The notes beneath the pieces are model-generated. The model was given only the letters and a program-made list of their open reading frames with translations. It ran no database searches and was not told the DNA's origin. Shown here piece after piece: positions 1 to 21,960 of a stretch of 28,938 nt of DNA. Position numbers and translations under genes: made by a program. The stretch comes from an uncultured Erysipelotrichaceae bacterium. Lineage in GTDB: Bacteria; Bacillota_I; Bacilli_A; Erysipelotrichales; Erysipelotrichaceae. The first letter of the stretch is position 1. Every line of letters starts with the position of its first letter. The stretch lies in NCBI GenBank assembly GCA_964643535.1, contig CAZXTB010000001.1:2260-31197 (forward strand), in the 5' to 3' direction.

Positions 1-210
1 CTTAGAAAGGCCAAACACCTTGCGCCTTATGTATTGGCCATCATCCCTATTTCTTACCTATCAGGAAGTATTGGTTTGAAACTTGAAGGGGTTCAGGCAG
101 AATCCTCCTTCTATGGGAAGTATATGATGTTGGTTTATTTGGGATTATGTATTATCTTCGCTTCCTACTATTTTATATCCGTTTATATAGAAAAAAGTTC
201 TAAAAAGTAA
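1..210 (+). CDS. 3' end of a membrane protein (partial, start upstream of window)
   Basis: Frame 1 is open from base 1 to TAA at 208-210 (LRKAKHLAPYVLAIIPISYL...YMMLVYLGLCIIFASYYFISVYIEKSSKK*). It has two hydrophobic stretches and is followed directly by a terminator. Confidence 0.75.
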   Translation, partial: LRKAKHLAPYVLAIIPISYLSGSIGLKLEGVQAESSFYGKYMMLVYLGLCIIFASYYFISVYIEKSSKK

Positions 211-215
211 CGCTT

Positions 216-242
216 AAGCCATCATGAGAATGATGGCTTTTT
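216..242 (+). terminator. Rho-independent terminator
   Basis: Perfect 10-bp stem AAGCCATCAT / ATGATGGCTT with a GAGA tetraloop and a T run, 5 nt after the stop at 210. Confidence 0.9.
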
Positions 243-322
243 GTATCTTTCTTTCTGTGAAAAAAGTTATGTTTAGATTATTCTCTTTTATGCTTCTTTT
301 CATATACAATGAAAGAGAAACC

Positions 323-1513
323 ATGATTAAACGAGAAAATATTCTTAAAAACTTAAGGAATCAGATTAAAGTTCATCATCATATTTTGGGGGTGGCTTTA
401 GGATCTGGATTAACCGCTAAATACGCTGAAGAAGGCGGAGCGGATTTTTTACTTGCGTTGAACTCAGGAAAATACAGACAACTTGGGAGAGGTTCAATTG
501 CTGGTTACCTAGCTTTTGAAGATTGTAATGGACTCGTATTAAATTTCGGAACTCGAGAGATCATGCCCCTTATTAAAAATATCCCGTTGATTTTTGGTTT
601 GAATGCGACAGATCCTATGATCAATCTAGAGACTTATATCGAGTATATTCAGTCTAAAGGCTTTGATGGGATCAATAATTATCCATCAGTTGGTCTTATC
701 GATGGTCAATTCGGAGAAGCATTAGAAGAGGAAGGTATTCGTTTTGAGACTGAAGTTGAAGCGATAAGGATCGCTCATGAACGTGATATGTTTACAGTAG
801 CTTTCGTCTTTAATGAGAAACAAGCGGTTCAAATGGCTAAAGCTGGTGCAGATGTGGTTTGTGCTCATCTTGGATTTACGATAGGTGGTAGTTTAGGTGT
901 TAAGAAGATTTTATCTTTAGAAAGTGCAAAGAAAGATATACAAAAGATGTTTGAAGCCTGTGACTCAGTATCGACAAACATTATAAAAGTTATTTATGGG
1001 GGTCCTGTTAAAACACCACTCGATGTCCAATACATGTATAACAACACCTCAGCTCATGGCTATATTGGTGGTTCAGCCATCGAAAGAATTCCGCTTGAAT
1101 CTTCCATCAAAGACATCACAAGAGCTTTCAAAACCTCAGGTACAGTTCAAGAAGATGATTCAATGATCAAGATGTTGGATGGGATAAACAAGCACTACAA
1201 TTATGCGGAGTTTGTGATGAAGTACATTGCGGAGCACTATCATGATGATATTTCACTTGAAGATCTGGCTCGTGTTGCTCATATCTCTGTCAATTACTTA
1301 AGCACCCTTTTTAAAAAAGAAGTAGGGAATAGTTTTAAGACTTATCTGGTTCGATTTAGAATTGAGAAAGCGGTAGACATTTTGAATGAAAAAGATATTC
1401 CTCTATATGAAGTCGCGGAGATGGTGGGATACAACGACTACACACAATTCAGTAAAATGTTTAAGAAGGTAACGGGTCTAACTCCTAGAGATTTTATCAA
1501 TAAAGATAAATAG
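323..1513 (+). CDS. TIM-barrel (PEP-hydrolase-like / TIM-barrel signal transduction family) domain fused to a C-terminal AraC HTH; transcriptional regulator
   Basis: N-terminus GSGLTAKYAEEGGAD...NSGKYR...GRGS...NYPSVGLIDG is clearly paralogous to 2918-3748. C-terminus SLEDLARVAHISVNYLSTLFKK...VAEMVGYNDYTQFSKMFKK is a typical AraC double HTH. Start moved from 224 (inside the terminator stem) to ATG 323, preceded by GAAAGAG. Confidence 0.88.
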   Translation: MIKRENILKNLRNQIKVHHHILGVALGSGLTAKYAEEGGADFLLALNSGKYRQLGRGSIAGYLAFEDCNGLVLNFGTREIMPLIKNIPLIFGLNATDPMINLETYIEYIQSKGFDGINNYPSVGLIDGQFGEALEEEGIRFETEVEAIRIAHERDMFTVAFVFNEKQAVQMAKAGADVVCAHLGFTIGGSLGVKKILSLESAKKDIQKMFEACDSVSTNIIKVIYGGPVKTPLDVQYMYNNTSAHGYIGGSAIERIPLESSIKDITRAFKTSGTVQEDDSMIKMLDGINKHYNYAEFVMKYIAEHYHDDISLEDLARVAHISVNYLSTLFKKEVGNSFKTYLVRFRIEKAVDILNEKDIPLYEVAEMVGYNDYTQFSKMFKKVTGLTPRDFINKDK

Positions 1514-1679
1514 ACTATATTTTTTCTCGTTTAGTAGGTAAACCCAAGCATTTCGTTGATAAACACATATACAATACCAAATGAAACCAGTACATTGATA
1601 ATGAAGATACAGTACTGTTTTTTTAGGACTTGGTTCACTGATCTGATCAATCAAGAACCCAAACGAAAGGAGTCTTTGA

Positions 1680-2906
1680 ATGAAGACTGTAGCCTTAGTA
1701 GGTACCTTTGATTCTAAAGGGGTAGAGTATGCTTACGTTAAGAAAATCATAGAGAATCTTGGATTAAAGACGTTTACCGTTCACATGGGGGTTTTCGAAC
1801 CATTGTTTACGCCTGATGTTTCTAATGCGGAAGTTGCTAAAGCAGCTGGCGTAGACATCAACGAAATCGTTGCGAAGAAAGATCGTGGTTGGGCAACTGA
1901 AGTCTTGTCTAAAGGTATGGAAATTATAATTCCTCAGTTATATAAAGAAGGAAAATTCGATGGGATTCTAGCGTTTGGTGGATCAGGTGGAACTTCCATC
2001 GCGACCCCTGGTATGAGAGCCTTACCTATTGGTGTTCCTAAAGTAATGGTTTCAACGGTAGCCTCTGGGAATACTGAACAATATGTAGGAACCAGTGATA
2101 TCGTTATGATGCCTTCAGTCGTCGATGTATCTGGGATCAATTCTCTTTCGACGAAAATCTTTACGAATGCAGCCTTTGCGATCGCAGGGATGGTCAGTTT
2201 TGAAAATAAAACTGTCGTTGAGAAAAAACCTTTAATCGCGGCGACGATGTTTGGGGTTACTACTCCTTGTGTCAATTTCGCTCGTGAATATATGGAAGCT
2301 CGTGGATATGAAGTCTTGGTTTTCCATGCGACTGGTACTGGCGGAAAATCAATGGAAGCTTTGATCAGTTCTGGATTCTTTGAAGGTGTCTTAGATCTAA
2401 CCACAACCGAATGGGCAGATGAAATCATCGGCGGTGTATTAGCTGCGGGACCTCATCGTTCAGAAGCAGCAGCGCTTCTTAATATTCCTCAAGTCGTTTC
2501 AGTAGGAGCTTTGGATATGTGTAATTTTGGGGCTTATGATACTGTGCCTGCTAAATTCGCAGGACGTATACTGTATAAACATAATCCAACCGTTACACTC
2601 ATGAGAACAATCGAATCAGAAAATGTTTTGTTCGGTAAGAAACTTGCTGAAAAACTAAATATGGCTAAGGCATATACCACCTTGATGCTTCCTTTAAAAG
2701 GCGTCTCGATGATCGATGCGGAAGGTCAACCTTTCTATAGTAAAGAAGCTGATGAAGCTTTATTCAATGAATTACGCAAAGGTGTTAATAGAAACGTTGT
2801 TAAACTAGAAGAATATGATTTACATATCAACGATAAGGAATTTGCTGAAAAAGCGGCTCAAAATCTTATCGATTTAATGAAAGCAAAAGCAGCAGAAACA
2901 AAATAA
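1680..2906 (+). CDS. UPF0261 / Tm-1-like ATP-binding domain protein
   Basis: Motifs [74 protein letters not shown] and HIND are characteristic of UPF0261. SD AAAGGAG at 1666-1672. Confidence 0.9.
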
Positions 2907-2917
2907 AGGGGAATCAT

Positions 2918-3748
2918 ATGAACACGATGTCTAGAACAGAAATTATGGCGATGTATCGCAAGCAAATCGCTGAAGGCGAGATTCTGCTTGGGGTTGGAGC
3001 TGGTACAGGTATAACCGCAAAATTTAGTGAAAAGGGTGGCGCCGATATGTTGATCATTTATAATTCTGGTCGATATAGAATGGCAGGAAGAGGCTCTTTG
3101 GCAGGACTCATGGCGTATGGAGATGCGAATAAAATCGTAGTCGAAATGGCGGCAGAAGTTTTACCTGTTGTTGTTGATACCCCAGTTCTTGCGGGTGTTA
3201 ATGGGACAGATCCGTTTAGAGTCATGGAAGTCTTCTTGAAAGAACTCAAAGAAATGGGTTTTAGTGGAGTTCAAAATTTCCCAACTGTTGGCTTGATTGA
3301 TGGTGTCTTCCGTCAGAACTTGGAAGAAACAGGAATGGGATATGGTTTGGAAGTCAATATGATCCGTAAAGCTCATGAACTTGACTTACTGACCACACCT
3401 TATGTATTTGATGAAAAACAAGCTGTACAAATGGCTGAGGCCGGTGCTGATATCTTGGTCGCCCACATGGGCTTGACTACCAAGGGAACCATTGGTGCTC
3501 ATACCGCTTTGACGCTTGATGACTGTGTTGCTCGTATTGAGAAGATCATAAAGGCAGGACGTGAGGTCAATCCAAACATCCTAGTCATCGCTCATGGGGG
3601 TCCTATTGCGGAACCAGATGATGCAGCTTATGTCATCTCAAAAACCAAAGGAATCAATGGTTTCTTCGGTGCATCAAGTATTGAACGCTTTGCGGCTGAA
3701 GTTGGGATAAAATCCCAAACTGAAGCATTTAAAAAAATCACTTTTTAA
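2918..3748 (+). CDS. Phosphoenolpyruvate hydrolase-like TIM-barrel protein (TIM-barrel signal transduction family)
   Basis: [57 protein letters not shown] and [10 protein letters not shown]. Starts 11 nt after the UPF0261 stop; SD AAAGGGG. Confidence 0.9.
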
Positions 3749-3760
3749 AGGAAAAACAAA

Positions 3761-4201
3761 ATGAAAAATATTAAACTAGCCATCGTCGTTGGACTTTTAG
3801 CCGGCGGTTGGGCATACTTTGCTTTAACAGTGGGAAAAATTGGGGATATTACCTTATATGCTTGGCCAGTCTTCTTATCATGGGCTTTATTCTTCGCAGC
3901 AGGGGCAAACCTAGAAGCTGTAAAAAAAGTATCTATTTCTCAAGTATGGGGTATTGCTTGGGGTTGGTTATCTGTTACGATCGGAATTGAAGTTCTTGGC
4001 GGAAGTTTAGGCGTTCCACTAGGTGTTGGCTTAGCCGTTATGGTTTTGGCAGCTCTGATCGTTATCTTGATGACTGACGTCAAATTCTTATCCTTTGGAC
4101 CTGGCGCATTTGCGGCTTGGGCTGTCTTCTTTGGAACAGGTTTTGATACAGTGAGTGCTTTGTTGATGCTGTTGGTAGGTGTCTTGTTCGGTTATTTATA
4201 A
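3761..4201 (+). CDS. DUF1097 (YcdZ-like) small membrane protein, probably C-terminally truncated by a nonsense codon (natural end likely 4237)
   Basis: Very hydrophobic, with FLSWALFFAAG and LSFGPGAFAAWAVFFG motifs typical of DUF1097. The frame continues past TAA 4199-4201 as VTITGMISKKS to TAA 4235-4237. Confidence 0.7.
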   Translation: MKNIKLAIVVGLLAGGWAYFALTVGKIGDITLYAWPVFLSWALFFAAGANLEAVKKVSISQVWGIAWGWLSVTIGIEVLGGSLGVPLGVGLAVMVLAALIVILMTDVKFLSFGPGAFAAWAVFFGTGFDTVSALLMLLVGVLFGYL

Positions 4202-4285
4202 GTCACGATTACAGGGATGATCAGTAAAAAGTCATAATTTTAAGTACTAAAGATTGATTTCGGTTTTCAAGAAACGGAGATTCAA

Positions 4286-5575
4286 ATGAGTCACGATGTA
4301 GTAAAAACGGATAAGATGTCTTGGGTATTAGATCCTAATGAAGAGATGTTAGGTCCACTAAAAGATGGTGGAACGATTATTGCTTTGACTTCCCCTGGTT
4401 GTTGGGGTCCTATGATTACTCCAGATTTCGCCAGTGGTCATGAAACCACAAAGCCTATCTATATTGAAGGGGCTGAAGTAGGCGATGCGGTCGCTTTATA
4501 TATTCAGGATATTAAAATTCTAGCCAAGGCTACTGTTTCTGGTATTGATGAAGCCATACCTGGGTTCTTTAATGGGGATCCATTTGTAGCGCCTCGTTGT
4601 CCTGTTTGTGATGTTGTTAATCCAAAAACCTATATTGAAGGTACTGGAGAAAAGAGTATTCGTTGTGCTAAATGTCACAATCCTGTAACACCTTTTAGAA
4701 TCAAATCAGGATATACAATGGTGTTTGATGATAAACAAGAAGTGGGGATTACAGTAGGCAAAGAAGCATGTGAAGACATTGCTAAAAATGCTTATGAATA
4801 TGCTCATCTTCCAGTAGAATCAAAACAATACCCAGCTAATTTGTATGCTAAATGCGATCTAGAAGGCGTTATCACTCGTATGCGTCCCATGATTGGTAAT
4901 ATGGGTTCATGTCCTTCAACCAAAATTCCTTCATCGCATAACGCAGGCGATTTTGGGGCTTTCCTAGTTGGGGCTCCTCATGAATATGGAATTGATGAAA
5001 AACTCTTGCTTCAACATAAAACAGATGGTCATATGGATGCTGATGAAGTTAGAAAAGGCGCCATCTTAATCGTTCCTGTAAAAGTTAAGGGTGCTGGTAT
5101 CTATATTGCTGACGTTCATGCTATGCAAGGTGATGGTGAAATCGCTGGGCATACAACAGACGTAAGTGCTGAAGTTACTTTAAAAGTAGAAATTATTAAA
5201 GGCTTAAAGATGGATGGACCTATCTTGCTTCCTAACGCAGAAGATCTACCTTTCTTAGCTAGACCTTATGATCAAAAAACACTTGATACTGCAAGAGCTT
5301 TAGCCAAAGAATTCAATACAAAACTCATGAATGATGTCTATCCTATGCAAGTAATTGGAACAGGCGCCAATATGGACGCAGCTGTAAACAGTGGATTGCA
5401 GAGAATGGCTGATCTATTGGGTGAAAGTGTTGATGTCGTTCGTAACCGTGTCACAATCAGTGGTTCAGTTAGTATTTCTAGAATGCCTGGTGTTGCACAA
5501 ATTACAGCGTTAGTACCAGCTTCCAGATTGAAAGAACTAAAGATTGAACATTTATACAAAGGTATGTATCGTTAA
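4286..5575 (+). CDS. Acetamidase/formamidase (FmdA/AmdA) family metalloenzyme, long form with two CxxC motifs
   Basis: TKPIYIEGAEVGD, RPMIGNMG, HNAGDFG, DGHMD and ADVHAMQGDGEIAGH; CPVC (4598) and CAKC (4664). SD ACGGAG. Confidence 0.85.
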   Translation: MSHDVVKTDKMSWVLDPNEEMLGPLKDGGTIIALTSPGCWGPMITPDFASGHETTKPIYIEGAEVGDAVALYIQDIKILAKATVSGIDEAIPGFFNGDPFVAPRCPVCDVVNPKTYIEGTGEKSIRCAKCHNPVTPFRIKSGYTMVFDDKQEVGITVGKEACEDIAKNAYEYAHLPVESKQYPANLYAKCDLEGVITRMRPMIGNMGSCPSTKIPSSHNAGDFGAFLVGAPHEYGIDEKLLLQHKTDGHMDADEVRKGAILIVPVKVKGAGIYIADVHAMQGDGEIAGHTTDVSAEVTLKVEIIKGLKMDGPILLPNAEDLPFLARPYDQKTLDTARALAKEFNTKLMNDVYPMQVIGTGANMDAAVNSGLQRMADLLGESVDVVRNRVTISGSVSISRMPGVAQITALVPASRLKELKIEHLYKGMYR

Positions 5576-5597
5576 TTAGATTGGTTTAAAATGAACC

Positions 5598-5630
5598 AAA
5601 AGTAGACATTCATAATGGATGTCTACTTTT
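5598..5630 (+). terminator. Rho-independent terminator (potentially bidirectional) ending the amidase operon
   Basis: AAAAGTAGACATTCA-TAA-TGGATGTCTACTTTT: 15-bp stem with one G-U pair, A run before and T run after. Confidence 0.88.
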
Positions 5631-5693
5631 AGTTTTATATGTATGAAGTTTGCTTGAGGTTGATGAAAGAAGGGTTTTATTACCAAACTAATC

Positions 5694-5722
5694 TTGATAA
5701 TTATATCTCTATCGCTTATCAT
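5694..5722 (+). promoter_or_regulatory. sigmaA-like promoter of the pilin-LRR gene
   Basis: TTGATA (5694-5699), 17-nt spacer, TATCAT (5717-5722). Confidence 0.55.
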
Positions 5723-5819
5723 TAAAGAAGTTATAAAAAGTTCTCAACCAAAATCTAGTTGATGTTGAGATAATAAATATAAACCAATTGGTTTTAAATG
5801 AACGTAAGAGGAGTTTCCT

Positions 5820-6608
5820 GTGAAAAGTATAAAAAACAGTAGAGCTTTCACTTTAATAGAGTTAATCATAATCATGGCAATCATGGCCGTTTTAGCGACA
5901 ATATTCATTCCTGCAGTGACAGGGTATATCGATAAAGCTAATCTCTCTACAGACATTGCCAATTTAAGATCACTCAATAGTGTAAGCCAACTCTATCGAT
6001 TTGAATCCAATCCAATCACAGAGGATCTTTTTTCAGGACTAACATCAGATACAGCGCGTATGAATGCGTTGATCACCAACGACTATTTATCAGAAGCAGT
6101 TGTTCCTAAACAAAAAGATGTTTACTTTACATGGAAAACAGATACTCAACAATGGATGATGGAAAACTCAAAAACTCCAAGTAGTTTACCTGGTGTTACG
6201 ATGGGAACCGGTGGTCATAAAGGATATATTAAAGGATCATATACAGGATCTGAAATGGATCTTGTGATGCCGCTTACTTTAGATGGGGTCAACATTACCA
6301 ATGTCTATCAAGATGTCTTTAGAGGTAAAGGATTAACCTCTTTGTATTTTGATCCTGCGAGTTTAATCATTGAGATCCATGCCCGTGCTTTCTTAAGCAA
6401 CAATCTAACTGAGATCAGTCTTCCTAATTCTGTTAAGAAAATAGACTATGCTGCCTTTAGTGATAATCCGATCACGAAGATCACCATTGGTTCTAATGTT
6501 ACTTTTGAAGGCAATGTGATAAGAAACAGTAACCTTTTCAGAGATACCTATTATGCTCAGGGTCCAGGCACTTATTTATTCATCAATGGAGCTTGGGTTA
6601 AACAATAA
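5820..6608 (+). CDS. Type IV pilin-like protein (class III signal peptide) with C-terminal BspA-type leucine-rich repeats
   Basis: GTG start with SD GAGGAG (5808-5813). KNSRA|FTLIELIIIMAIMAVLATIFIP is a prepilin motif. The C-terminus has LRR_5-like units (AFLSNNLTEISLPNSVKKIDYAAFSDNPITKITIGSNV). Confidence 0.85.
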   Translation: MKSIKNSRAFTLIELIIIMAIMAVLATIFIPAVTGYIDKANLSTDIANLRSLNSVSQLYRFESNPITEDLFSGLTSDTARMNALITNDYLSEAVVPKQKDVYFTWKTDTQQWMMENSKTPSSLPGVTMGTGGHKGYIKGSYTGSEMDLVMPLTLDGVNITNVYQDVFRGKGLTSLYFDPASLIIEIHARAFLSNNLTEISLPNSVKKIDYAAFSDNPITKITIGSNVTFEGNVIRNSNLFRDTYYAQGPGTYLFINGAWVKQ

Positions 6609-6790
6609 GAAATGAGCACACATTGGAATTTTGAAACTGGGATAATCAATACCGATAGAACACTTTATACGAAATAATCTTCTTCAGAGGGTTTAATTCT
6701 AGTGCCCCTAGTATATTGTTTATGGTTTATCTCAAGATGAAAAAACTAAAGAATTAATCATCTCAAGAGTGGGGTCCTAATGGAGTCATC

Positions 6791-6819
6791 TTGATTAATT
6801 GAATCAAATCAGTTAAGAT
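6791..6819 (+). promoter_or_regulatory. Candidate sigmaA-like promoter upstream of tex
   Basis: TTGATT (6791-6796), 17-nt spacer, TAAGAT (6814-6819). Confidence 0.45.
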
Positions 6820-6832
6820 TTTAATGGACGTT

Positions 6833-6860
6833 AAGCAGAGTCCCTGACTTTGCTTTTTTT
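6833..6860 (+). terminator. Terminator-like hairpin immediately upstream of the tex SD
   Basis: AAGCAGAGTC-CCT-GACTTTGCTT (10 bp, one G-U pair) followed by a T run; ends 17 nt before the tex ATG. Confidence 0.75.
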
Positions 6861-6877
6861 ATCTCAAAGAGGAAACC

Positions 6878-9019
6878 ATGGAAAAATTGATTGCGCCTAT
6901 CGCAAAAACACTTAATATTAGCTTCTCTCAAGTTAAGAATACTTTAGATCTATTAGCTGAAGGCAATACGATTCCTTTTATTGCGCGATATAGAAAAGAA
7001 GTGACTAAAGATCTCGATGAAGAACAGATCCGTTATATCGATGAACAATTCCAATATCAAAAAAATCTCGCTAAACGTAAAGAAGATGTGAAACGTTTGA
7101 TTGAAACTCAAGGGAAATTAACGCCTGAGTTGATCGCTCAAATCGATGCGTGTGAGACCTTATCTTTAGTCGAAGACATCTATCGTCCTTATCAACAGAA
7201 ACGTAAGACCAGAGCGACGGATGCGATCGCTAAGGGGCTTAAACCTTTAGCGGATTGGATCTTGAGTTGTCCAATAAAAGGAAACATTGAAGAAGAAGCG
7301 ACGAAGTATCTTAGTGATAAGGTAGCTTCAATAGAAGAAGCCATACAAGGCGCAAAAGACATCATCGCAGAAAGTGTCTCTGATGAAGCAACGCTTAGAA
7401 AAATGATTCGTGAACACATGATGTCTGAAGCGAAGATCATTGTAAAGATGATGAAGAATGCGGTCGATGAGTTAAAGACTTATCATGTTTATTATGCCTA
7501 TACTGAACGGTGTTCTACTTTAGCTCCTCATAGAATCATGGCCATCAATCGTGGTGAACGTGAGAAGATCTTATATGTGAATATGGAGTATAATCGTGAA
7601 CGCTTTGCGAAGGTACAATTCACCAAGATGACCAAGAATCAAAACTCGATCGTCAATGAGCTGATCGATGAAGCCATTCGTGATGGGTTAAAGCGTTTGG
7701 TTTATCCTTCTCTTGAAAGAGAAATAAGATCCAGTTTAACCGAGAAAGCTCAAGAAAAATCGATTGATGTTTTCTCTTCTAATCTAGAGCGCTTATTGTC
7801 TCAAGTTCCTATGAAGGGATCCATCATCTTAGGATTAGATCCTGCTTATCGTACAGGATGTAAATTAGCGGTTATCGATGGGACAGGTAAACTGATCCAC
7901 ATCGATGTGATCTATCCTCATCAACCTGTCAATAAAAAAGAAGAAGCCCTTAAGAAGACCATCGAATTGATACAGAAATATAAGGTTAATCTTATTGCGA
8001 TTGGGAATGGGACAGCGAGCAGAGAATCAGAAGCATTTATCGCTGAGATCTTAAGAAACAATCCAAACATCAATACGAGATATGTGATCGTATCTGAAGC
8101 AGGAGCTTCTGTTTATAGTGCGGGTGATTTAGCTCGTGAAGAATTTCCTGATCTCCACGTTGAGCAAAGATCTGCGGTATCCATTGCGCGTCGCTTATTA
8201 GACCCTCTCTCAGAACTCATCAAGATCGATCCTAAGAGTATCGGCGTAGGACAATATCAACACGATCTAGCTCCAGCTCGTCTTCAAGAAAGACTGGATT
8301 TTGCGGTCATTAAAACTGTTAATCGAGTAGGTGCTGATGTGAATACTGCCAGTGAAGAACTCTTAAGACACATAGCGGGTTTAAATAAATCTGTCGCCAA
8401 ATCATTGGTGGCCTATCGTAATGAGAATGGGCTCTTTAACAGTCGATCTCAACTCAATAAAGTTAAAGGCATGGGCGCTAAAGCTTATCAACAAGCAGCC
8501 GGTTTCTTACGTATTCCTTTGGCGAAAGATGAGCTTGATCGTACAGCCATCCATCCTGAATCTTATGATTTAGCCCATAAGATCATGAAAGAATTAGACA
8601 TCCGTTCACTTCTTGATGAACATCGCTCATTGGCCTTAGCCAATGCGAATGCGCAAGATTTAGCGACGAAGTTGAACTCAGATATCTATACCGTAAAAGA
8701 CATCTTAGGCATCTTGGCTGTGCCTTTTAGAGACTATCGTGAACGCTTTGATGCGCCTTTACTACACAGTGATATCGTAAAGATCGAAGATCTAAAAGTA
8801 GGCCTATCTTTAGAAGGAACCGTTAGAAACGTTACTGATTTTGGAGCCTTTGTGGACATTGGATTAAAGAATGATGGTTTGGTTCACATCTCAAAACTCA
8901 GTAAGGATAGACTCTCTTCTCCTTATGAGAAAGTAGCGGTAGGAGACATCGTTACAGTCACTGTTTTAGAAGTCGATCTTGAACGTCATAAAGTATCTTT
9001 AAGTATGATTGAACAATAG
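6878..9019 (+). CDS. tex: Tex (YhgF-like) RNA-binding transcriptional accessory protein
   Basis: EGNTIPFIARYRKEVT, GLDPAYRTGCKLA, GNGTASRES, DPKSIGVGQYQHD, HhH region, and C-terminal S1 domain GTVRNVTDFGAFVDIG...GLVHIS. SD AGAGGA. Confidence 0.97.
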   Translation: MEKLIAPIAKTLNISFSQVKNTLDLLAEGNTIPFIARYRKEVTKDLDEEQIRYIDEQFQYQKNLAKRKEDVKRLIETQGKLTPELIAQIDACETLSLVEDIYRPYQQKRKTRATDAIAKGLKPLADWILSCPIKGNIEEEATKYLSDKVASIEEAIQGAKDIIAESVSDEATLRKMIREHMMSEAKIIVKMMKNAVDELKTYHVYYAYTERCSTLAPHRIMAINRGEREKILYVNMEYNRERFAKVQFTKMTKNQNSIVNELIDEAIRDGLKRLVYPSLEREIRSSLTEKAQEKSIDVFSSNLERLLSQVPMKGSIILGLDPAYRTGCKLAVIDGTGKLIHIDVIYPHQPVNKKEEALKKTIELIQKYKVNLIAIGNGTASRESEAFIAEILRNNPNINTRYVIVSEAGASVYSAGDLAREEFPDLHVEQRSAVSIARRLLDPLSELIKIDPKSIGVGQYQHDLAPARLQERLDFAVIKTVNRVGADVNTASEELLRHIAGLNKSVAKSLVAYRNENGLFNSRSQLNKVKGMGAKAYQQAAGFLRIPLAKDELDRTAIHPESYDLAHKIMKELDIRSLLDEHRSLALANANAQDLATKLNSDIYTVKDILGILAVPFRDYRERFDAPLLHSDIVKIEDLKVGLSLEGTVRNVTDFGAFVDIGLKNDGLVHISKLSKDRLSSPYEKVAVGDIVTVTVLEVDLERHKVSLSMIEQ

Positions 9020-10731: not shown

Positions 10732-13473
10732 ATGATCAGAAAAATAATAATTCTAATGATGTCGCTTTTATTGGGTCTTTCTTTAAGTTCGTGTTTTAGT
10801 CAAGGTAATAAAAGCGTTGTGGGTAATACCAGTGGAAACATCAATAATGGGTCTCGCTTTTTAACTTTAGGCGACAGTATTTATTTTACGCTTGCTGAAA
10901 GTGATCAAGATATTCAAAATCCTGAGACAGGATTCTATAAAACAAACCTAAATGGAACAAAAATTGAGAAGCTCTTTAGTAAAGATCTTGGAGCTTTATT
11001 TTTTAGTGGGAATACTATAGTCACCAGTACAGGTTATGATTATAATCCAAGTACGGGTCAACTCACTCGATCGGTATGGGCTAAAGAAGTTGAACTTGGA
11101 TCTGCTTTCCTAGTTTATGGAGATCTTATACTCTACTCAAATAAATTAGATCAAGATCGTCTCTATTCGATTCAAAGAGATGGAACTAAAATCACCAAAC
11201 TTACTGAGGTTTCTGTCAGTAAAGTCGACGTGATGAACGGATGGATCTATTATTCTACAAAAGATCCTGTTTCATTAAGAAGAGTTAAATTGAATGGGAA
11301 AGAAGATGCTTTAGTCTCTGAAGATGCAGGGAGTGATTTCATTCTTAAAGAAGATAAGATCTATTATATTTCTTTAGAGAAACAGACCTTAAAATCTATG
11401 AATTTAGATGGGACAGTCGCTAAGACAAAAAACGAAATCAAATCTAAGAATATTAATATGTTTGAAGATAGGGTCTATTATATAATGCTTGCGGATGAAC
11501 GAGTCTATAGTTTTGTTGATGGTGATGGTCCTTTAGCCGTTTATCCTCGTTCAGTGAGTACTGCAGGATCACTCTTTATTGGAGGAGATTTTGTATTTTT
11601 TGAAGATGCTATTTATCCTAACCGAATCAACAAGATTCATGTGACGGGACTACAATCTGATTTTATTAAATCATCTTATGGATTGGGCAATGTTTTAGGG
11701 AACACCCCTGGCAACATCAACAACGGTGCTAGGATGGTTGAAGTCAACGGATGGATTTATACATCAGAGAGAACGGATCTTTCTAGTGAATATCCTATGA
11801 ACGGTATCAATCCTTATGGTGGTCTATGGAGAATGAGAACAGATACTTCAGAAAGAGAAAGAATCATTGATACCGATGTAGGCTCTTTATACTCTACTGG
11901 AGGCATGATTTATACTCAAATTGGCTTAACCTATAATCCCACAACTCTGGAGCTTAAACCTTCTAAATGGGCAAACGCTATTCCATATTCAACGAGTGGA
12001 TCCTTTACAGTCTTTGATGACATAGTTTTGTCTAGTAGAGATAGGAGATTATATAGTGCTACAATTGATGGTTCTGCCGCGAAGATAATCCTAGATAATG
12101 TAACTATTACGAAATGTATCGTGGTAGGAGAATGGATTTATTATGTTGAAGATAAAGATATGATGAGTGTGCTTCATCGGATGTCTTTAACGGGAACCAA
12201 TAATACAGTCGTATTGAATATGCAATACGATGATTACCTCATTGAAGGCTCCTTGCTTTACTTCAGAAATATGTTGGATGAAAATAGGATTTACGTCAAA
12301 GACTTATCTACAGGCACTGAAACCAAACTAAACAATGTGGGTGGAATGGCGCTCAATTCAAGCGCCACCAAACTCTTCTATGTCAACGAGTCTGATTATT
12401 ATGTTTATCAAATGGATAAAGACGGAAAGAACACAAAGAAAATATCTTCAACGACGACGATCAACATCTTGGTTGTAGGAGATTATCTCTATTATAGAGA
12501 TAACTATCAATATACCAGTATGCGTAGAATAAACTTAACTACAGGGGTTGAAGAGAATCTAACGTATGAAACCCATGTAGCACCTGTATCTAGTCCTACT
12601 GAACTTCTAAAAGGAAATGCGGTGGGATCCTTGGTGGTTGAGAAAGACGGTTGGATCTATGGATCCAGCACGAACGGTTTATATCGTATGAAAGCCGATG
12701 GATCTTCAAGAACCAAGATTTCTGATCATAGAGCGATCTCTATGGCCATCTTGTCTGATTGGATCTATTTTATCAATCCTGATCATCTCAATTGGATCTT
12801 TAGAATGAAATTGGATGGGAGCGAATATAGTGTAGTCTCAACAAAAACAGCAGGTAGAATAATCATCAAAGATGAATGGATCTACTTCAATAATTATGGC
12901 TTATCAAGGGTTCGCACAGATGGGAGTGGCTTAAAGACTCTTGAGAATGGTTTGACTGGATATGTCGATTACCAACCAGGATTCTACATCGACAACAATA
13001 AAATAATATACGTTCAGATGATAGACGACTATACGCGTGTTATCTCACGATTAGATCTCGATGGGAAGAATAAAGATGTATTAATCCAAGGAAACAATTG
13101 GCTTCTCAATGTGAGAGATTCCTGGATCTATTATCATGTCCATGATTATTCTGGTATGACTCAATATCAAAACTATAAAATGGATTTCTATGGAAATCAT
13201 AAGACTTTGATCACCAATGAAGATCAGATTGATCTCATCGGGACCTATGATGGTTGGGTTTATGCCTATGGATTTAATAGATCAAGTGTGTTCAAAATGA
13301 AAGCCGATGGGTCTTCTAAGAAAGTCTTGACGAATATAAACAATGAATGGATCGACAGTATCGTCATCACTTCAACTCACTTTGTGATTGGGACACGCGA
13401 TAATATCTCTCTTCAATATAAAATGTATTCAGGAGATCTTGAAGGACTCTATGTATGGGAAATCATTAACTAA
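10732..13473 (+). CDS. Large surface lipoprotein with three tandem DUF5050-like beta-propeller domains
   Basis: Lipobox LSSC after a hydrophobic stretch. Domain starts GNTSGNINNG (10822), GNTPGNINNG (11698) and GNAVG (12613). Many GWIY / DGS / KMKADGS blade repeats. Confidence 0.85.
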   Translation: MIRKIIILMMSLLLGLSLSSCFSQGNKSVVGNTSGNINNGSRFLTLGDSIYFTLAESDQDIQNPETGFYKTNLNGTKIEKLFSKDLGALFFSGNTIVTSTGYDYNPSTGQLTRSVWAKEVELGSAFLVYGDLILYSNKLDQDRLYSIQRDGTKITKLTEVSVSKVDVMNGWIYYSTKDPVSLRRVKLNGKEDALVSEDAGSDFILKEDKIYYISLEKQTLKSMNLDGTVAKTKNEIKSKNINMFEDRVYYIMLADERVYSFVDGDGPLAVYPRSVSTAGSLFIGGDFVFFEDAIYPNRINKIHVTGLQSDFIKSSYGLGNVLGNTPGNINNGARMVEVNGWIYTSERTDLSSEYPMNGINPYGGLWRMRTDTSERERIIDTDVGSLYSTGGMIYTQIGLTYNPTTLELKPSKWANAIPYSTSGSFTVFDDIVLSSRDRRLYSATIDGSAAKIILDNVTITKCIVVGEWIYYVEDKDMMSVLHRMSLTGTNNTVVLNMQYDDYLIEGSLLYFRNMLDENRIYVKDLSTGTETKLNNVGGMALNSSATKLFYVNESDYYVYQMDKDGKNTKKISSTTTINILVVGDYLYYRDNYQYTSMRRINLTTGVEENLTYETHVAPVSSPTELLKGNAVGSLVVEKDGWIYGSSTNGLYRMKADGSSRTKISDHRAISMAILSDWIYFINPDHLNWIFRMKLDGSEYSVVSTKTAGRIIIKDEWIYFNNYGLSRVRTDGSGLKTLENGLTGYVDYQPGFYIDNNKIIYVQMIDDYTRVISRLDLDGKNKDVLIQGNNWLLNVRDSWIYYHVHDYSGMTQYQNYKMDFYGNHKTLITNEDQIDLIGTYDGWVYAYGFNRSSVFKMKADGSSKKVLTNINNEWIDSIVITSTHFVIGTRDNISLQYKMYSGDLEGLYVWEIIN

Positions 13474-13478
13474 GTGTG

Positions 13479-13501
13479 AAGCCATCCTCGGATGGCTTTT
13501 T
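13479..13501 (+). terminator. Rho-independent terminator
   Basis: AAGCCATC-CTCG-GATGGCTT followed by a T run. Confidence 0.85.
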
Positions 13502-13545
13502 CTTTGAGCACTGAAGTTTAAGGATGAGTATGTTAAGATAAAGCC

Positions 13546-14058
13546 ATGAAGATGAACGAAGAAGACTTTACCGCAATCTATCACGCGACCTATACCCCAC
13601 TTAGAAAATTCATTCTATTTAAGACAAATAGTATTCAAGATGGAGAAGAATTGATCCAGAATGTTTATCTGGATTTTTATCGATACATCGTCAAAGAAGG
13701 AAAGCCTGTTGATAATGCCTTAGCGTATTTAATGGGGATGGCTAAACATGAATTGGGTCGATACTATAAAAACAAAGCGAATGAAGCCATCACGTTCGAT
13801 GATGAAGATAATAATCTTTTAGATCAGATCCCAGATGATTTGGATTTAGAAAGCGAACTATTAGATGCCTTAACCATTGAAGAAATCTGGGCCAGTATTC
13901 AAAAACTTAGTCCTCTTGATCAAAAGATCTTGGTGGGAAGGTATCGATTTGATCTTTCTTATAAAGAGATCGCCGCTCAATGTGAGATGCCTGAGACAAC
14001 GGTTAAGAGCCGAATCTATAAATCGATTGAGACCTTAAAAGTAAAATTTAAAAAATAG
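13546..14058 (+). CDS. ECF-family RNA polymerase sigma factor
   Basis: 170 aa with region 2 (DGEELIQNVYL...AYLMGMAKH) and region 4 (LSPLDQKILVGRY...LSYKEIA...ETTVKSRIYK). An alternative start is possible at 13552. Confidence 0.9.
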   Translation: MKMNEEDFTAIYHATYTPLRKFILFKTNSIQDGEELIQNVYLDFYRYIVKEGKPVDNALAYLMGMAKHELGRYYKNKANEAITFDDEDNNLLDQIPDDLDLESELLDALTIEEIWASIQKLSPLDQKILVGRYRFDLSYKEIAAQCEMPETTVKSRIYKSIETLKVKFKK

Positions 14059-14111
14059 TTTCGTCTATTTTGTCCTAATCATTCTCTTCTAAGATGTAAG
14101 GAAGCAAACCT

Positions 14112-15047
14112 ATGAACCAGAAATTCAAAAAAAGTATTCAACAGTATGCCTGTAATGAAGAGGAGACATTATCTCAAATCTTTAAACAAGCTCAAGTTCT
14201 AGGTTTACGATCCCCAAGGAGAACACCTTTTATGAACAGATTTTTAAAGTTAAGTTTAAGTGTTGCTTTAGTTAGTGTTTTAGCGCTGGTTACGTTAACT
14301 CAATTTGGGATATTTAATCCCTTTGGCGGATCAAATGCCGTTACAGCAGTGTATGCTTTGGATATTAATCCTAGCTTTGAGCTTTCCGTCAATCGTGCTG
14401 ATGTCGTTGTGAAGATTGTCGCCGTCAATGATGACGCTAAGACGATCACCACTGAAGATCTATTGGGTTTAGATTCAGCGCTTGTTATTCAAACGCTTGT
14501 TCAAAGAGCGACAGAAGCTGGGTTTATTGATGATACAGATCTTATCGAAGACTTTGTCTTAGTCACAAGCATTCCGATGAAAGATGATAGTGAAACACAG
14601 AAACAAGTCGATAACCTAGGTCAGAAGATTCAAGCCCTAAGAGAAGCTGATCCTACTCTACAAGCCATTAGTGTCGCCACCATCAAAGCCACTAAGATTG
14701 AACTCTTAGAAGCTCAAGGAAAGAAAATACCTGTAGGATTGTATGTCGTCAATGGAATGATTACCTCCCCTGATGGAACAATCTTAAGCGTTAAAGAATT
14801 CTTCTCAGATCCTGAAAATCGTGCGCTTATTAAGAATTATGGTCATATTACGGAAGTGAATCTTGATAAGTATCGTTCCCGCTTGATATTGGCATTGAAT
14901 AAACTTGATAGACAAGGTGTTAATACCATTAGCTTACGAGAACGCATTACAGCAACATCAACCGAAGATGAACTGAATGTAATCAACAATGAAATACAAA
15001 TTTTAATTGAAGCGAATAAACCAGGTAATGGGAAACCCGCCAAATAA
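14112..15047 (+). CDS. Single-pass anti-sigma factor candidate with an RsgI-like juxtamembrane domain
   Basis: About 45-aa N-terminal region, one TM segment (LSLSVALVSVLALVTLTQFGIF), then YALDINPSFELSVN...VAVNDDA, matching the RsgI extracytoplasmic signature. Directly downstream of the ECF sigma; SD AAGGA. Confidence 0.75.
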   Translation: MNQKFKKSIQQYACNEEETLSQIFKQAQVLGLRSPRRTPFMNRFLKLSLSVALVSVLALVTLTQFGIFNPFGGSNAVTAVYALDINPSFELSVNRADVVVKIVAVNDDAKTITTEDLLGLDSALVIQTLVQRATEAGFIDDTDLIEDFVLVTSIPMKDDSETQKQVDNLGQKIQALREADPTLQAISVATIKATKIELLEAQGKKIPVGLYVVNGMITSPDGTILSVKEFFSDPENRALIKNYGHITEVNLDKYRSRLILALNKLDRQGVNTISLRERITATSTEDELNVINNEIQILIEANKPGNGKPAK

Positions 15048-18531: not shown

Positions 18532-18662
18532 TAATTTATGAAAAGTGAGACAAAAGATATAAAATCTTGTGATGCATCTTGCTCTTGCTATCAAATCAAG
18601 GGTATTCATATTATAATGAAAACGATATTACTAATCCCAGTGTTAGAAAAACGGTGAATCAA

Positions 18663-20252
18663 ATGAATAGAGATTACACCATCCTTTTAGTGGATGATGA
18701 AGAAGAAGTTAGAAAGCGCATCATATCAAAAATCCATCCTGAATCTGGTTTTGAAGTCATAGGACAAGCGGCCAATGGCTATGATGCGATCGATTTGATC
18801 GAAAAACTTAAACCAGATGTCGTTATTACAGACATTCGGATGCCTTTTGTTAATGGTATAGAGTTGGCTAAGATCATCAGTAAAGAACACCCTAAAACCA
18901 AGGTGGCTTTTATTTCGGGCTATGATGAATTCGCCTATGCTAAAGAAGCCATTGAACTCAATGTTGTCAGCTATCTTTCCAAACCCATCACTGAAGAAGA
19001 AGTGAATCATTTTCTATCTAAACTTAAATCTAGAATGGATGAAGAGTACCAAGCTTTATTTAATCAAGAAAGATTGGATGAAGTGTATCAAGCCAATTTA
19101 CCCGCATTGATAGAGAATCAATTTAACTCGTTACTGCATTACTCCAACATCACGGATCAAGATTTACAACGTTTTAAAGTCTTCGATATTGATCTTAGTG
19201 TAGGATGTTTCACCATTGGGATCATTGAGATCGATGCAGATGCAGACTTCTTAGAAATAGAATATCTACGAATCTTTTTATTGAATTTGCTTAAGAAGAA
19301 ATTTGAAGACTATAAAGCTTTGTACTACATCAACAGTGGGTTTGGACTAGTATTCATTGTTCATCAACTTGCTATGAATGTGAAAGACGTAGAAACCAGG
19401 CTTTATGAAGTGGTTTTAACCAAGAAACAATATTCTAATATTCGAGTTCAAATTGGGGTATCTGAAACTTTCGATGATTTTAAACTGGTCTCAAGTAAAG
19501 TCCTGCAAGCTAAAAAGGCACTCTCTTATAGTAACTATCTCAACATTGGAACCATCATTTACTATAAAGACATCACCTCTAAAAAGAAGATTGATTTGAA
19601 ACTATCTAAAAGCGAAATCGATGAGATCAGTTATGTCATCAAATTTGGAACTGTTAAAGAGGTTGATGATTTATTCGCAAACTTACTAAAAAACAAAGAC
19701 ATGCGTCAAGACTATTTGCTCAATAAACAATACTATCTGGTGAATCTTGCCCATATATTTATCGAATTCGCCAATGGGCTCAATGTGGAGTTGGATGATA
19801 TTCTTGAAGGTAACTTCTTTGATAAACTATCAGGATTTTCTCAACTTCAAGACATGTTTAATTTCTTAAAGAAATTGGTCTTTGCTTGTCGAGAAATGAA
19901 CATGCATCGATCAAAGACATCAGCCAGTTTACTTCTCGAAGAGGCACTTCTCTATTTAAATACCAACTATGCTAATCCAAATATTACGATGGAATTTGTT
20001 TGTGATGATCTGGGCATCAGTATTTCTTATCTAAGCAATCTTTTTAAAAAAATCGAAGACACCACCTTCAACAAGTATCTGGTTAAAACACGGATGGAAA
20101 AGGCGATGGAGCTTTTGAAGTTTAGCGATGATAAGATCTATGAAGTTGCCAATCAAGTAGGCTATAACGACATCTATTATTTCAGCTACAGTTTCAAAAA
20201 ATACACAGGGCATTCACCCAAGGAGTATCGCCATGATCAAAAGGCTGAATGA
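18663..20252 (+). CDS. YesN-type response regulator (REC + C-terminal AraC HTH)
   Basis: ILLVDDE, VVITDIRMP, FISGYDEFAYAKEA, YLSKP and AraC C-terminus VANQVGYNDIYYFSYSFKKYTGHSPKEYR. Start moved from TTG 18579 to ATG 18663. Confidence 0.93.
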   Translation: MNRDYTILLVDDEEEVRKRIISKIHPESGFEVIGQAANGYDAIDLIEKLKPDVVITDIRMPFVNGIELAKIISKEHPKTKVAFISGYDEFAYAKEAIELNVVSYLSKPITEEEVNHFLSKLKSRMDEEYQALFNQERLDEVYQANLPALIENQFNSLLHYSNITDQDLQRFKVFDIDLSVGCFTIGIIEIDADADFLEIEYLRIFLLNLLKKKFEDYKALYYINSGFGLVFIVHQLAMNVKDVETRLYEVVLTKKQYSNIRVQIGVSETFDDFKLVSSKVLQAKKALSYSNYLNIGTIIYYKDITSKKKIDLKLSKSEIDEISYVIKFGTVKEVDDLFANLLKNKDMRQDYLLNKQYYLVNLAHIFIEFANGLNVELDDILEGNFFDKLSGFSQLQDMFNFLKKLVFACREMNMHRSKTSASLLLEEALLYLNTNYANPNITMEFVCDDLGISISYLSNLFKKIEDTTFNKYLVKTRMEKAMELLKFSDDKIYEVANQVGYNDIYYFSYSFKKYTGHSPKEYRHDQKAE

Positions 20253-21960
20253 TTTATCGATTGGGAAATCTATATTCCTAACGATCCTTATTTTTACTGG
20301 GTTTTTAACCTTATCGACTGTCCTATCAAATCAATTGATTTTCGCTAGGACGGATCGACTTATCGAGAGTACTTCCAAAGAAATCAATAAACAAGTCATC
20401 ATGAACTATGAGAATTATCTTAGCAACATGATCGGTATTTCCAATGCTTTACAGGAATACATCATCGATACCACGAAAGTTGATGATTTTGAAGAACTAT
20501 CACTTTTGTTTGTACAGACCACCAATATCGAACGAAACATTCTAAACGTAGCTTTGATTTCTGAAGATGGGCAGCTGATGGCTTCAAGTGTTGATGTTAA
20601 AATCAATCCAAATATTTTAGACATAGAATGGTTTATCGAAGCCAAACAGGCTGAAGATATCCATCATTTTAGTGGTCTACATACCGAAAATTTCTTTATG
20701 TTGGGACGTAAAGAAGTTTTTACTGTTTCTAAAAGTGTCCAGTATTTCGTAAATGGGGTTTCTAATAAAGGGGTATTGATGATTGATATCGATACCAGCA
20801 ATTTTAAGACCTTAGCTCAACAAACCAATCTTGGTGAAAAGGGGCACATCGTTATCACTTCGCAATCTGGGAAGATCATTTATTCCTCTGATCCTTTGTG
20901 TTATGGGAATGATTGTACTTCAGCTGAGATCTTAAAAGAGATTGGCTTAGGAGGTCGTTTGGTGAAATGGAACAATCTAAATATGTACGCCAACGTGAAT
21001 ACCATCAAAGATACCCGTTGGAAGATCGCCACCTTCATCAACGTCAATGAGATCGTCTCAACCAAAGCAGACATCTTAATACGATTGATTTTGATTTTCG
21101 TTTTAACGCTGATCACGACTTCTCTGATATCCACCTATTTCTCTAGACGAATAACCCTTCCGATGAACATCTTGAAGAATCACATTGCCTTAATAGAGAA
21201 AGGTGACTTTGAGTCTAGAGTTCATGTCTCAGGATTAAAAGAAGTCACTCTTTTAGCGGAAGCTTTCAATACGATGAGTAATCGAATCAAGGAACTGATG
21301 GATAAGGTTTTTACTGAACAAAATGAAAAGAGAAAGACCCAATTCATTGCCTTACAGAATCAAATCAATCCTCATTTTCTATACAATACCTTGGATTCTA
21401 TTGTCTCGTTGAGCGAAAATAATCGTAATAAGGATGTAGAAAGCGCCATCATTGCCTTGTCTAAATTCTTTAGGATGAGTATTTCCAATGAGATGAATTT
21501 AGTAGAGCTCAAGGATGAAATTGAACATGTTAGAAACTACCTGCTTATTCAACAGATTCGTTATCAAAATACCTTCGTCTTTGATTTTGAAATCGATGAT
21601 GATATTCTTCATCATAAAGTCATTAAGTTATCACTTCAACCTTTGGTAGAAAATGCCATCCTACATGGGATCCATCCTGATGATGCCTATTCAACCATCT
21701 TGGTTAAAGGCTATGCCAAAGATAATTTCCTTTATATTGAAGTATTCAATGAAGGCTATGGAATCTCTAAGGAACGTATCCAGGAGATCCATACCATGAT
21801 TCAATCCAATCAGAATACATCCAGTATGGGGCTTAAGAATGTCTATCAACGACTGAAACTATACTATGGTGATGAAGCAGACCTTATCTTAGAAAGTGAA
21901 TTGGATGAATATACAAAGGTTATTATGAAGATGCCTTTGGGAATGGAGGAATCACTATGA
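20233..21960 (+). CDS. YesM/LytS-type sensor histidine kinase (extracellular Cache-like domain, HAMP, His_kinase, HATPase)
   Basis: Two TM segments flank an extracellular domain; HAMP region, LQNQINPHFLYNTL, LQPLVENAILHG and MGLKNVYQRLKLYYG. Overlaps the response regulator by 20 nt. Confidence 0.94.
   Translation: MIKRLNDLSIGKSIFLTILIFTGFLTLSTVLSNQLIFARTDRLIESTSKEINKQVIMNYENYLSNMIGISNALQEYIIDTTKVDDFEELSLLFVQTTNIERNILNVALISEDGQLMASSVDVKINPNILDIEWFIEAKQAEDIHHFSGLHTENFFMLGRKEVFTVSKSVQYFVNGVSNKGVLMIDIDTSNFKTLAQQTNLGEKGHIVITSQSGKIIYSSDPLCYGNDCTSAEILKEIGLGGRLVKWNNLNMYANVNTIKDTRWKIATFINVNEIVSTKADILIRLILIFVLTLITTSLISTYFSRRITLPMNILKNHIALIEKGDFESRVHVSGLKEVTLLAEAFNTMSNRIKELMDKVFTEQNEKRKTQFIALQNQINPHFLYNTLDSIVSLSENNRNKDVESAIIALSKFFRMSISNEMNLVELKDEIEHVRNYLLIQQIRYQNTFVFDFEIDDDILHHKVIKLSLQPLVENAILHGIHPDDAYSTILVKGYAKDNFLYIEVFNEGYGISKERIQEIHTMIQSNQNTSSMGLKNVYQRLKLYYGDEADLILESELDEYTKVIMKMPLGMEESL

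Follow-up and report, generated by a model that had tools for sequence, protein, structure and literature searches.

We read a five-gene locus in a 28,938-nt stretch of Erysipelotrichaceae DNA (hereafter the window, meaning the whole stretch, with positions counted from its first base) as a mosaic inducible operon put together from two evolutionary units, and we give this reading, with the kinase-barrel-sensor mechanism proposed below, a probability of about 0.55. Judged by gene content and order, the first unit is a trio of genes that stands on its own and is found widely in Bacillota. The trio encodes an activator in which a TIM barrel is joined to an AraC-type DNA-binding domain, a UPF0261 protein of the Tm-1/MarK type, and a TIM-barrel enzyme of the PF09370 family. 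The second unit, which also appears free-standing elsewhere, is a captured gene pair for a small DUF1097 membrane protein and an amidase of the FmdA/AmdA family. The window comes from a metagenome-assembled genome (78% complete, 357 contigs) of an Erysipelotrichaceae bacterium known from freshwater.

A conserved trio and its neighbors

The survey covered 70 genome loci whose UPF0261 proteins resemble the window's at 60-91% identity, or at 38% in one case; every protein of the window served as a query against them. The barrel gene lies directly behind UPF0261 at all 68 loci that could be judged, and the gene for the barrel-AraC regulator adjoins UPF0261 at 62 of 67. Clustering of open reading frames over the 70 loci returned no further family present in more than 11 of them. 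The hosts of the trio span Erysipelotrichaceae, Paenibacillus, Clostridium (including C. sporogenes and C. botulinum group I), Diplocloster, Anaerobutyricum, Selenomonadaceae, Lachnospiraceae and a Fusobacteriaceae genome. In relatives it is found between housekeeping genes, with serS upstream and tadA, dnaX, ybaB and recR downstream, and it therefore appears to be a self-contained island. At two loci from complete or near-complete Erysipelotrichaceae genomes (L006 and L007), UPF0261 and the barrel gene stand in the serS-tadA-dnaX context without regulator and DUF1097; elsewhere the regulator is in two pieces (L026) or DUF1097 is broken (L011 and G047).

A few accessory genes accompany the trio outside the window. 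A small cupin gene follows it at 4 loci, and at four others in Diplocloster and Lachnoclostridium (L025, L028, L042 and L055) the barrel gene is followed by genes for a DASS-family anion transporter and an arylsulfotransferase. Arylsulfotransferases are phenol-handling enzymes, and this context hints at phenolic substrates in these two genera.

DUF1097 and the amidase differ in how often they accompany the UPF0261/barrel pair, which the initial annotation had expected both to do. DUF1097 recurs: it lies behind the barrel gene at 8 of the 70 loci, all of them Erysipelotrichaceae-like and with copies of another clade than the window's, as well as at two loci with copies of the window's own clade (L152 and L153, described below). 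Among 121 genomes of the family, UPF0261 is present in 7 and DUF1097 in 8; the 4 genomes with both have them adjacent in each case. A phylum-wide survey, in which DUF1097 scored above the cut-off in 5 of 401 genomes, was too sparse for use. The amidase, on the other hand, does not co-occur with the pair at any of the 70 UPF0261 loci, and its ~430-aa form is found in the window's genome and in none of the other 120 of the family. Within the genus, the module is present in two of six species and the amidase in one. Apart from the DUF1097-paired loci described below, relatives of the amidase at 63-67% identity, like those at 64 metagenome loci (46-56%), have neither DUF1097 nor the UPF0261/barrel pair beside them. 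Clustering of neighbors over these 64 loci yielded no conserved partner, and the neighbors are variable; some relatives adjoin genes for ABC transporters of the Liv/Urt type, and the SBP_bac_5 operon type for L-amino acid amides (bioRxiv 10.1101/2024.02.22.581678) was absent from the recurrent neighbor clusters that we scanned.

The 3′ end of the operon appears to have been exchanged

Nucleotide similarity (blastn) between the window and its nearest relatives, loci L002 (81%), L003 and L054 (both 76%) stops at position 3761, the start codon of DUF1097; similarity to L152 runs on to 4137. Because homology breaks at this point, the 3′ end of the operon appears to have been swapped in, with the DUF1097-amidase pair replacing a native DUF1097 exactly at its start codon. 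UPF0261 and the barrel are 78-96% identical to their counterparts at the eight loci with DUF1097 behind the barrel gene, and the window's DUF1097 is 34-39% identical to the copies behind the barrel gene in its closest relatives.

The DUF1097 clade of the window occurs in three settings. It follows the trio, without an amidase, at L152 and L153 (71% identity), where MBL-fold and SIS genes come next. It stands immediately 5′ of an FmdA/AmdA gene, with no trio, at L083-L086 (60%; amidase 65%) and at L158-L160 (53%; amidase 68%), the latter beside integrase and phage-replication genes. At L154-L157 (55%), it lies 1.9 kb from a gene for a 451-aa amidase. DUF1097-amidase pairs without the trio thus come from three lineages. 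Since this clade is found with the trio alone or with the amidase alone, and other relatives of the amidase have neither DUF1097 nor the UPF0261/barrel pair, DUF1097 is best described as a shared element, repeatedly joined to the trio and, separately, to this amidase clade. Trio, DUF1097 and amidase stand together only in the window's species, in which six JGI contigs show the same arrangement at 92% DNA identity.

The DUF1097 gene (3761-4201) encodes a small polytopic membrane protein, matched over its whole length by PF06496 (74.5 bits, cut-off 24.6). The amidase gene (4286-5575) encodes a member of PF03069 (155 bits) that scores 38.8 bits against the formamidase equivalog NF045496, below the cut-off of 500, and is thus no formamidase orthologue. 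Its predicted structure (pLDDT 91) was matched by Foldseek only to structures of FmdA/AmdA enzymes (3TKK, 2II1, 2F4L, 5UBU, 3B9T and 2WKN). Four cysteines (C105, C108, C127 and C130, in the pattern CPxCG...CxKCG) are invariant in the ~430-aa clade, and this clade-specific segment looks like a zinc-ribbon insertion. The solved acetamidases, at ~300 aa, are ~130 residues shorter than members of this clade.

Layout and transcription of the operon

Searches with Pfam placed all five open reading frames in the families that had initially been assigned to them, and measurement of the locus bore out the layout described at that time. The genes are co-oriented on the forward strand between two intrinsic terminators, both of them strong as first noted. 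The left one, at 216-239, belongs to the upstream gene and consists of a 10-bp stem, a 4-nt loop and a T-run (-15.2 kcal/mol, z -3.4); the right one, at 5598-5630, has a 15-bp stem (-20.4 kcal/mol, z -5.8). Gaps of 11 nt (2907-2917) between UPF0261 and the barrel gene and 12 nt (3749-3760) between the barrel gene and DUF1097 join the three central genes, as first noted, and each contains a ribosome-binding site. The amidase had been placed about 50-85 nt behind DUF1097, and the distance is 84 nt in the window and 48 nt in the allele of the surrounding population. In this last gap, we found no terminator-like fold (folding z +0.28) and no recognizable promoter.

Seven RNA runs contain all or part of the window, and we examined four freshwater metatranscriptome runs (X1, X2, X4 and X8, from three samples and two studies). 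In X1, one contig of 3971 nt spans 1621-5591. Contigs in X2, X4 and X8 bridge gene junctions, including those between barrel gene and DUF1097 and between DUF1097 and amidase. The left ends of contigs from three runs fall at 1612, 1621 and 1628, and one of these contigs carries adapter at its end; the right ends fall at 5591-5596. No RNA contig was found in the four runs on the flanks at 1-468 and 5617-7000, even though Tex is a housekeeping gene. For the regulator gene, the RNA amounts to three single 151-nt pieces at a depth of 1-2; the activator gene is weakly transcribed. Because the contigs bridge every junction, stop at the edges of the unit and leave the flanks bare, UPF0261, barrel, DUF1097 and amidase genes behave as one transcription unit in the window's species, from just behind the predicted promoter to the terminator at 5598-5630. 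Contaminating DNA is an unlikely source of these contigs, since it would ignore such borders.

The RNA assemblies also revealed a variant in the window's DUF1097. At 4199-4201, where the window has TAA, all four runs and the sister contigs (including L072) have TCA (Ser), so that the population allele encodes 158 aa and ends at 4237; the 146-aa copy in the window is without the last 12 residues. The window's genome either carries a stop variant that trims DUF1097 or was assembled with one.

The UPF0261 protein is probably a kinase

The UPF0261 protein (1680-2906), the probable kinase subunit, is covered over its whole length by PF06792 in its N-terminal part (208.5 bits) and PF23189 in its C-terminal part (313.5 bits), and scores 617 bits against NCBIfam NF002674 (cut-off 335). 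Among proteins of solved structure, it matches tomato Tm-1 (3WRY, E 3e-92) and MarK (9MPY, E 1e-60). MarK (Saro_1862 of Novosphingobium aromaticivorans) is an ATP-dependent kinase of phenolic hydroxyls that yields ADP, and its gene neighbors are the carboxylase and phosphatase genes acvCDEF (PMC12624787). The statement in the initial annotation that no substrate was established for bacterial UPF0261 is thereby outdated, MarK being a demonstrated ATP-dependent aromatic kinase (PMC12624787).

The D-[ST]-K motif of the ATP site is retained in the window's protein as D11-S12-K13, equivalent to D14-T15-K16 of MarK; the lysine corresponds to K16 of MarK and K20 of Tm-1. Also retained are G192, H216 and H301, equivalent to G195, H219 and H304 of MarK, which are >90% conserved among MarK homologues; G195 and H219 hydrogen-bond the phosphorylated oxygen and H304 stacks on the ring (PMC12624787). 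The residues of the acetovanillone pocket, in contrast, are replaced: I345, M280 and N282 stand for H348, F283 and I285 of MarK. Because K13 of the ATP site, G192/H216 and H301 are kept but I345, M280 and N282 are altered, the protein probably phosphorylates a planar or enolic hydroxyl compound other than acetovanillone. Given these pocket differences and the lack of carboxylase and phosphatase genes in the window, it does not appear to be a MarK orthologue, that is, an acetovanillone kinase. A scan with the PADLOC models gave no match that would suggest a defense role.

An enzyme barrel and a probable sensor barrel

The gene behind UPF0261 (2918-3748) encodes its partner, a TIM-barrel enzyme of PF09370 (424 bits), a family labeled "phosphoenolpyruvate (PEP) hydrolase-like". 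Residues 5-274 match the structure 2P10 with a phmmer E of 3e-114, and the AlphaFold2 model (pLDDT 89, eight strands) superimposes on it in Foldseek at 61-62% identity and a TM-score of 0.89-0.92. Behind 2P10, Foldseek ranks TrpA, PdxS, ThiE and TrpC. All four are barrels whose β7/β8 loops bind the phosphate of the substrate, and the modeled fold suggests that the PF09370 barrel is likewise an enzyme of the phosphate-binding type. A placement of 2P10 among the PEP/pyruvate-binding barrels is not supported by the Foldseek ranking.

Bacterial fusion proteins of UPF0261 and barrel exist, with lengths of 754 and 814 aa; such fusions (see also PMC5028733) argue that both proteins act together. A complex prediction for UPF0261 and barrel scored 0.00, which counts neither for nor against binding.

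The regulator (323-1513) carries a second PF09370 barrel (residues 7-271, 342 bits) ahead of an AraC-type double helix-turn-helix (~300-394). In this C-terminal part, PF12833 (71.8 bits) and PF00165, the latter in two stretches, mark the paired helix-turn-helix motifs typical of the AraC/XylS family. Full-length regulators of this build fall into ~22 clusters at 50% identity in a representative library. We compared 65 enzyme barrels with 59 regulator barrels, using enzyme numbering throughout. The enzymes are at least 95% conserved at 168 of 276 positions, and the regulators keep 72 of those 168, including the GGP and GxxGxS loops. In every one of the 59 regulators, however, three catalytic-face residues are changed in the same way: Y48L, K189G and H226Y. 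In the AlphaFold2 model, these residues map to the C-terminal ends of β2, β6 (in the loop) and β7. We infer from this pattern that the regulator is probably a pseudo-enzyme sensor, which would hold the barrel's ligand, most simply the phosphorylated product of the kinase, without converting it.

Many sigma-54 enhancer-binding proteins of ~600 aa (including P0162 and P0181) likewise have a PF09370 barrel as N-terminal sensor. The presence of this barrel on both AraC and sigma-54 regulators therefore suggests one sensor module wired to two types of output.

A putative operator and promoter precede UPF0261

The gap between the regulator gene and UPF0261 contains a putative operator at 1537-1567, made of the direct repeats GGTAAACCCA (1537-1546) and GATAAACACA (1558-1567), which are 21 nt apart from start to start. 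These are the sole two matches within bases 1-6500 of the window. The proximal repeat abuts a -35 element, TATACA (1568-1573), which is followed after a 17-nt spacer by a -10 element, TACATT (1591-1596), together forming a putative activator-dependent promoter at 1568-1596. Of 55 orthologous intergenic regions, 26 contain the pattern TAAACACA-N13-TAAACACA with at most 2 mismatches, versus 3 of 1100 shuffled sequences (0.3%), and 49 contain it with at most 3 mismatches, versus 4% of shuffles. Relatives in Clostridium and Paenibacillus have the repeat pair followed by TTTACA-17-TATGAT at the same position as TATACA/TACATT in the window. The putative operator co-varies with the presence of the regulator, and a conserved AraC-type operator with promoter was found in front of UPF0261 only.

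We decided against reading an inverted repeat at 1584-1621 as a leader attenuator: in relatives, its 5′ arm contains the -10 box, so that the transcript would start within the repeat. Its fold in the window is weak (-8.3 kcal/mol, z -1.4), and it is more likely the terminator of the regulator gene, overlapping the promoter. In about 25 loci of Clostridium and Paenibacillus in addition to L046, L012 and L024, the gap between regulator gene and UPF0261 holds a perfect 13-bp palindrome, CAGTATGATTAAT...TTAATCATACTG, with a T-run, which encloses the -10 box of UPF0261. In these relatives, the palindrome may serve both as terminator of the regulator gene and as part of the promoter. An Rfam scan of 1-7000 at E-value thresholds gave no known family, and hence no recognized riboswitch in the leader.

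Proposed mechanism and competing explanations

We propose that a small uncharged solute would enter the cell through DUF1097 and that UPF0261 would phosphorylate a hydroxyl on it, of the phenol, enol or lactim type, with ATP; where the solute is an amide, the amidase would hydrolyze it before or after the kinase step. The barrel enzyme would convert the phosphorylated intermediate. The regulator barrel, with its three catalytic-face residues lost and its glycine-rich β7/β8 loops kept, would bind the intermediate or the substrate without turnover and turn the promoter on.

Several points weigh against this picture. The trio mostly stands alone, without a transporter or downstream enzyme, which is odd for catabolism and would permit a role in detoxification or signaling. 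The link to the amidase is seen in one species only and may carry no metabolic meaning, though a functional link between amidase and trio in that species is plausible. The phosphate-binding label of the barrel depends on fold neighbors at 13-18% identity, and MarK works without a barrel partner, which makes the role proposed for the barrel less certain. Finally, assembled contigs fall short of proof that the four genes share one RNA molecule, and there may be internal promoters.

How much the amidase has to do with the trio is the point on which two other explanations turn. In one, DUF1097 and amidase form a mobile two-gene passenger behind the barrel gene, co-transcribed by read-through only and metabolically unconnected to UPF0261 and the barrel. 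The pair is indeed independent in three lineages, with integrase and phage-replication genes beside the L158 copy; relatives of the amidase have highly variable neighbors, and none of the 70 UPF0261 loci has the amidase, nor does any of the five further species of the genus. Yet two DUF1097 clades occupy the same slot behind the barrel gene in independent lineages, which suggests that the membrane protein serves the trio as a functional accessory. A mere passenger must also be squared with a swap that is precise at the start codon and preserves the 12-nt gap with its ribosome-binding site, with the lack of a terminator or recognizable promoter between the genes, and with the joint presence of all four genes in RNA assemblies of three samples; we consider it possible but rather unlikely. 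The other explanation follows the initial annotation, which saw a complete inducible pathway for a probably nitrogen-containing compound: all five genes would form one ancestral route dedicated to the catabolism of a single compound of this kind. Part of this stands, as the unit is bounded by terminators, co-transcribed and equipped with a putative AraC-type operator and promoter before UPF0261; its tight spacing, common orientation and recurrent DUF1097 linkage would fit as well. What falls is the idea of one conserved five-gene pathway: the amidase accompanies the pair at none of the 70 UPF0261 and none of the 64 amidase loci, homology breaks at 3761, and the whole module is missing in four of the six species of the genus. 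The neighborhood survey largely refutes an ancestral pathway, to which we give hardly any credence, and makes the amidase a species-specific acquisition.

A further explanation would take UPF0261 and the barrel out of metabolism altogether, as an ATP-binding signaling or protective module with the AraC fusion as part of a signaling circuit. The known role of Tm-1 is protein binding (to a viral replicase), PF09370 is annotated as "TIM-barrel signal transduction" and occurs joined to activator modules of the AraC and sigma-54 types, and in most genomes the trio is found without another enzyme. Against this, MarK is a true kinase, and the residues of the ATP site and of hydroxyl binding are kept in the window's protein. 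The strong conservation of the enzyme barrel extends to exactly those catalytic-face residues that the regulator copy has lost, no PADLOC defense model matched, and the accessory genes are metabolic or transport genes (the cupin; the arylsulfotransferase with the DASS transporter; the MBL-fold and SIS genes). A purely signaling or protective module thus seems improbable to us.

Within the mosaic-operon reading, a narrower version can be put forward by analogy with MarK acting on phenols and with chemistry of the 5-oxoprolinase type. The trio would use ATP to activate small cyclic amides, imides or hydroxylated N-heterocycles: UPF0261 would phosphorylate a lactim or enol oxygen and the barrel would open or otherwise convert the phospho-intermediate. 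DUF1097 would be a channel for neutral solutes, the captured amidase would hydrolyze the resulting half-amide, and the regulator would sense the phospho-intermediate. We regard this version as speculative and distinctly doubtful. If true, it would give the Tm-1-like pair and DUF1097 their first physiological function.

Other features of the window

Directly behind the operon terminator, 5820-6608 encodes a type IV pilin-like N-terminal methylation motif fused to BspA-type leucine-rich repeats, with no RNA contigs. At 10732-15047, the gene for a 913-aa DUF5050 repeat protein is followed by genes for an ECF-type sigma factor and an RsgI-like anti-sigma factor. The region 18579-22964 encodes a second AraC-type regulator (a response regulator), a Cache/HAMP histidine kinase and a periplasmic sugar-binding-like protein, and looks like a sugar-sensing system; upstream of it, on the opposite strand, lies a galactokinase-like gene.

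Significance and relation to known systems

UPF0261 and PF09370 proteins occur in bacteria, archaea, fungi and plants, in the latter as Tm-1. To our knowledge, a single catalytic activity has been demonstrated for UPF0261 so far, with none for the UPF0261/PF09370 pair, and in the literature that we searched we found no description of the trio with its barrel-sensor regulator. The locus would document an activator whose sensor appears to be a catalytically altered copy of the enzyme that it controls. Compact, self-regulated trios with a putative operator are present in cultivable Clostridium sporogenes, Anaerobutyricum hallii and several Paenibacillus, which makes a reporter screen for the inducer feasible. 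Since the operon is expressed in lakes, the inducer is probably present in natural freshwater, and the splicing of DUF1097 and amidase onto the trio offers a natural experiment that may narrow the chemistry to small amide-like solutes.

The two modules of the trio's enzyme pair are the same as those of tomato Tm-1 and Tm-1-like proteins (PDB 3WRV-3WRY; PMC5028733), in which they are fused and here are encoded by adjacent genes. The only known role of Tm-1 is to inhibit a viral replicase, whereas the bacterial pair stands in an operon under an AraC regulator of the small-molecule type. With MarK, the window's protein shares the two-domain UPF0261 fold, the D-[ST]-K motif and the Gly/His/His set; it differs in being closer to Tm-1 and in having a barrel partner, which MarK lacks, in place of the acvCDEF neighbors. 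The barrel enzyme is very close in sequence and fold to Mll9387 of Mesorhizobium loti (2P10), a structural genomics target deposited as "putative phosphonopyruvate hydrolase", but the deposited name is a guess that its Foldseek neighbors do not support.

The second unit resembles small-amide operons in combining an amidase with a membrane component for uptake, among them amiEBCRS of P. aeruginosa with AmiS, fmd of Methylophilus, and the FmdA_AmdA/ABC operons of the SBP_bac_5 type, which handle L-amino acid amides (bioRxiv 10.1101/2024.02.22.581678). Unlike in these, the membrane partner is DUF1097 rather than AmiS/UreI or an ABC system, and the amidase is far from formamidase and carries the Cys4 insertion. 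The DUF1097 protein of E. coli, YcdZ (proposed name NupT), is a predicted transporter in the CytR nucleoside regulon (PMC3454398), and in Anaerostipes hadrus ycdZ lies upstream of preTA-hydA, the genes for dihydropyrimidine dehydrogenase and dihydropyrimidinase (PMC11036815). The window's DUF1097 is likewise a small five-helix membrane protein beside enzymes for small N-heterocycles or amides, although the E. coli and A. hadrus copies are only distantly related to it and their transporter role is a predicted one. Together with the amidase pairing, the YcdZ contexts point to small neutral solutes of an amide-like or heterocyclic kind, without singling one out.

With activators of the AraC/XylS family (AraC, RhaS, XylS), the regulator shares the C-terminal double helix-turn-helix and a site beside the regulated operon. 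The predicted operator follows the class II layout of this family, with two half-sites 21 bp apart and the proximal one abutting the -35 element. The regulator departs from the family in its sensor, which instead of a cupin is a full TIM barrel paralogous to the enzyme under its control.

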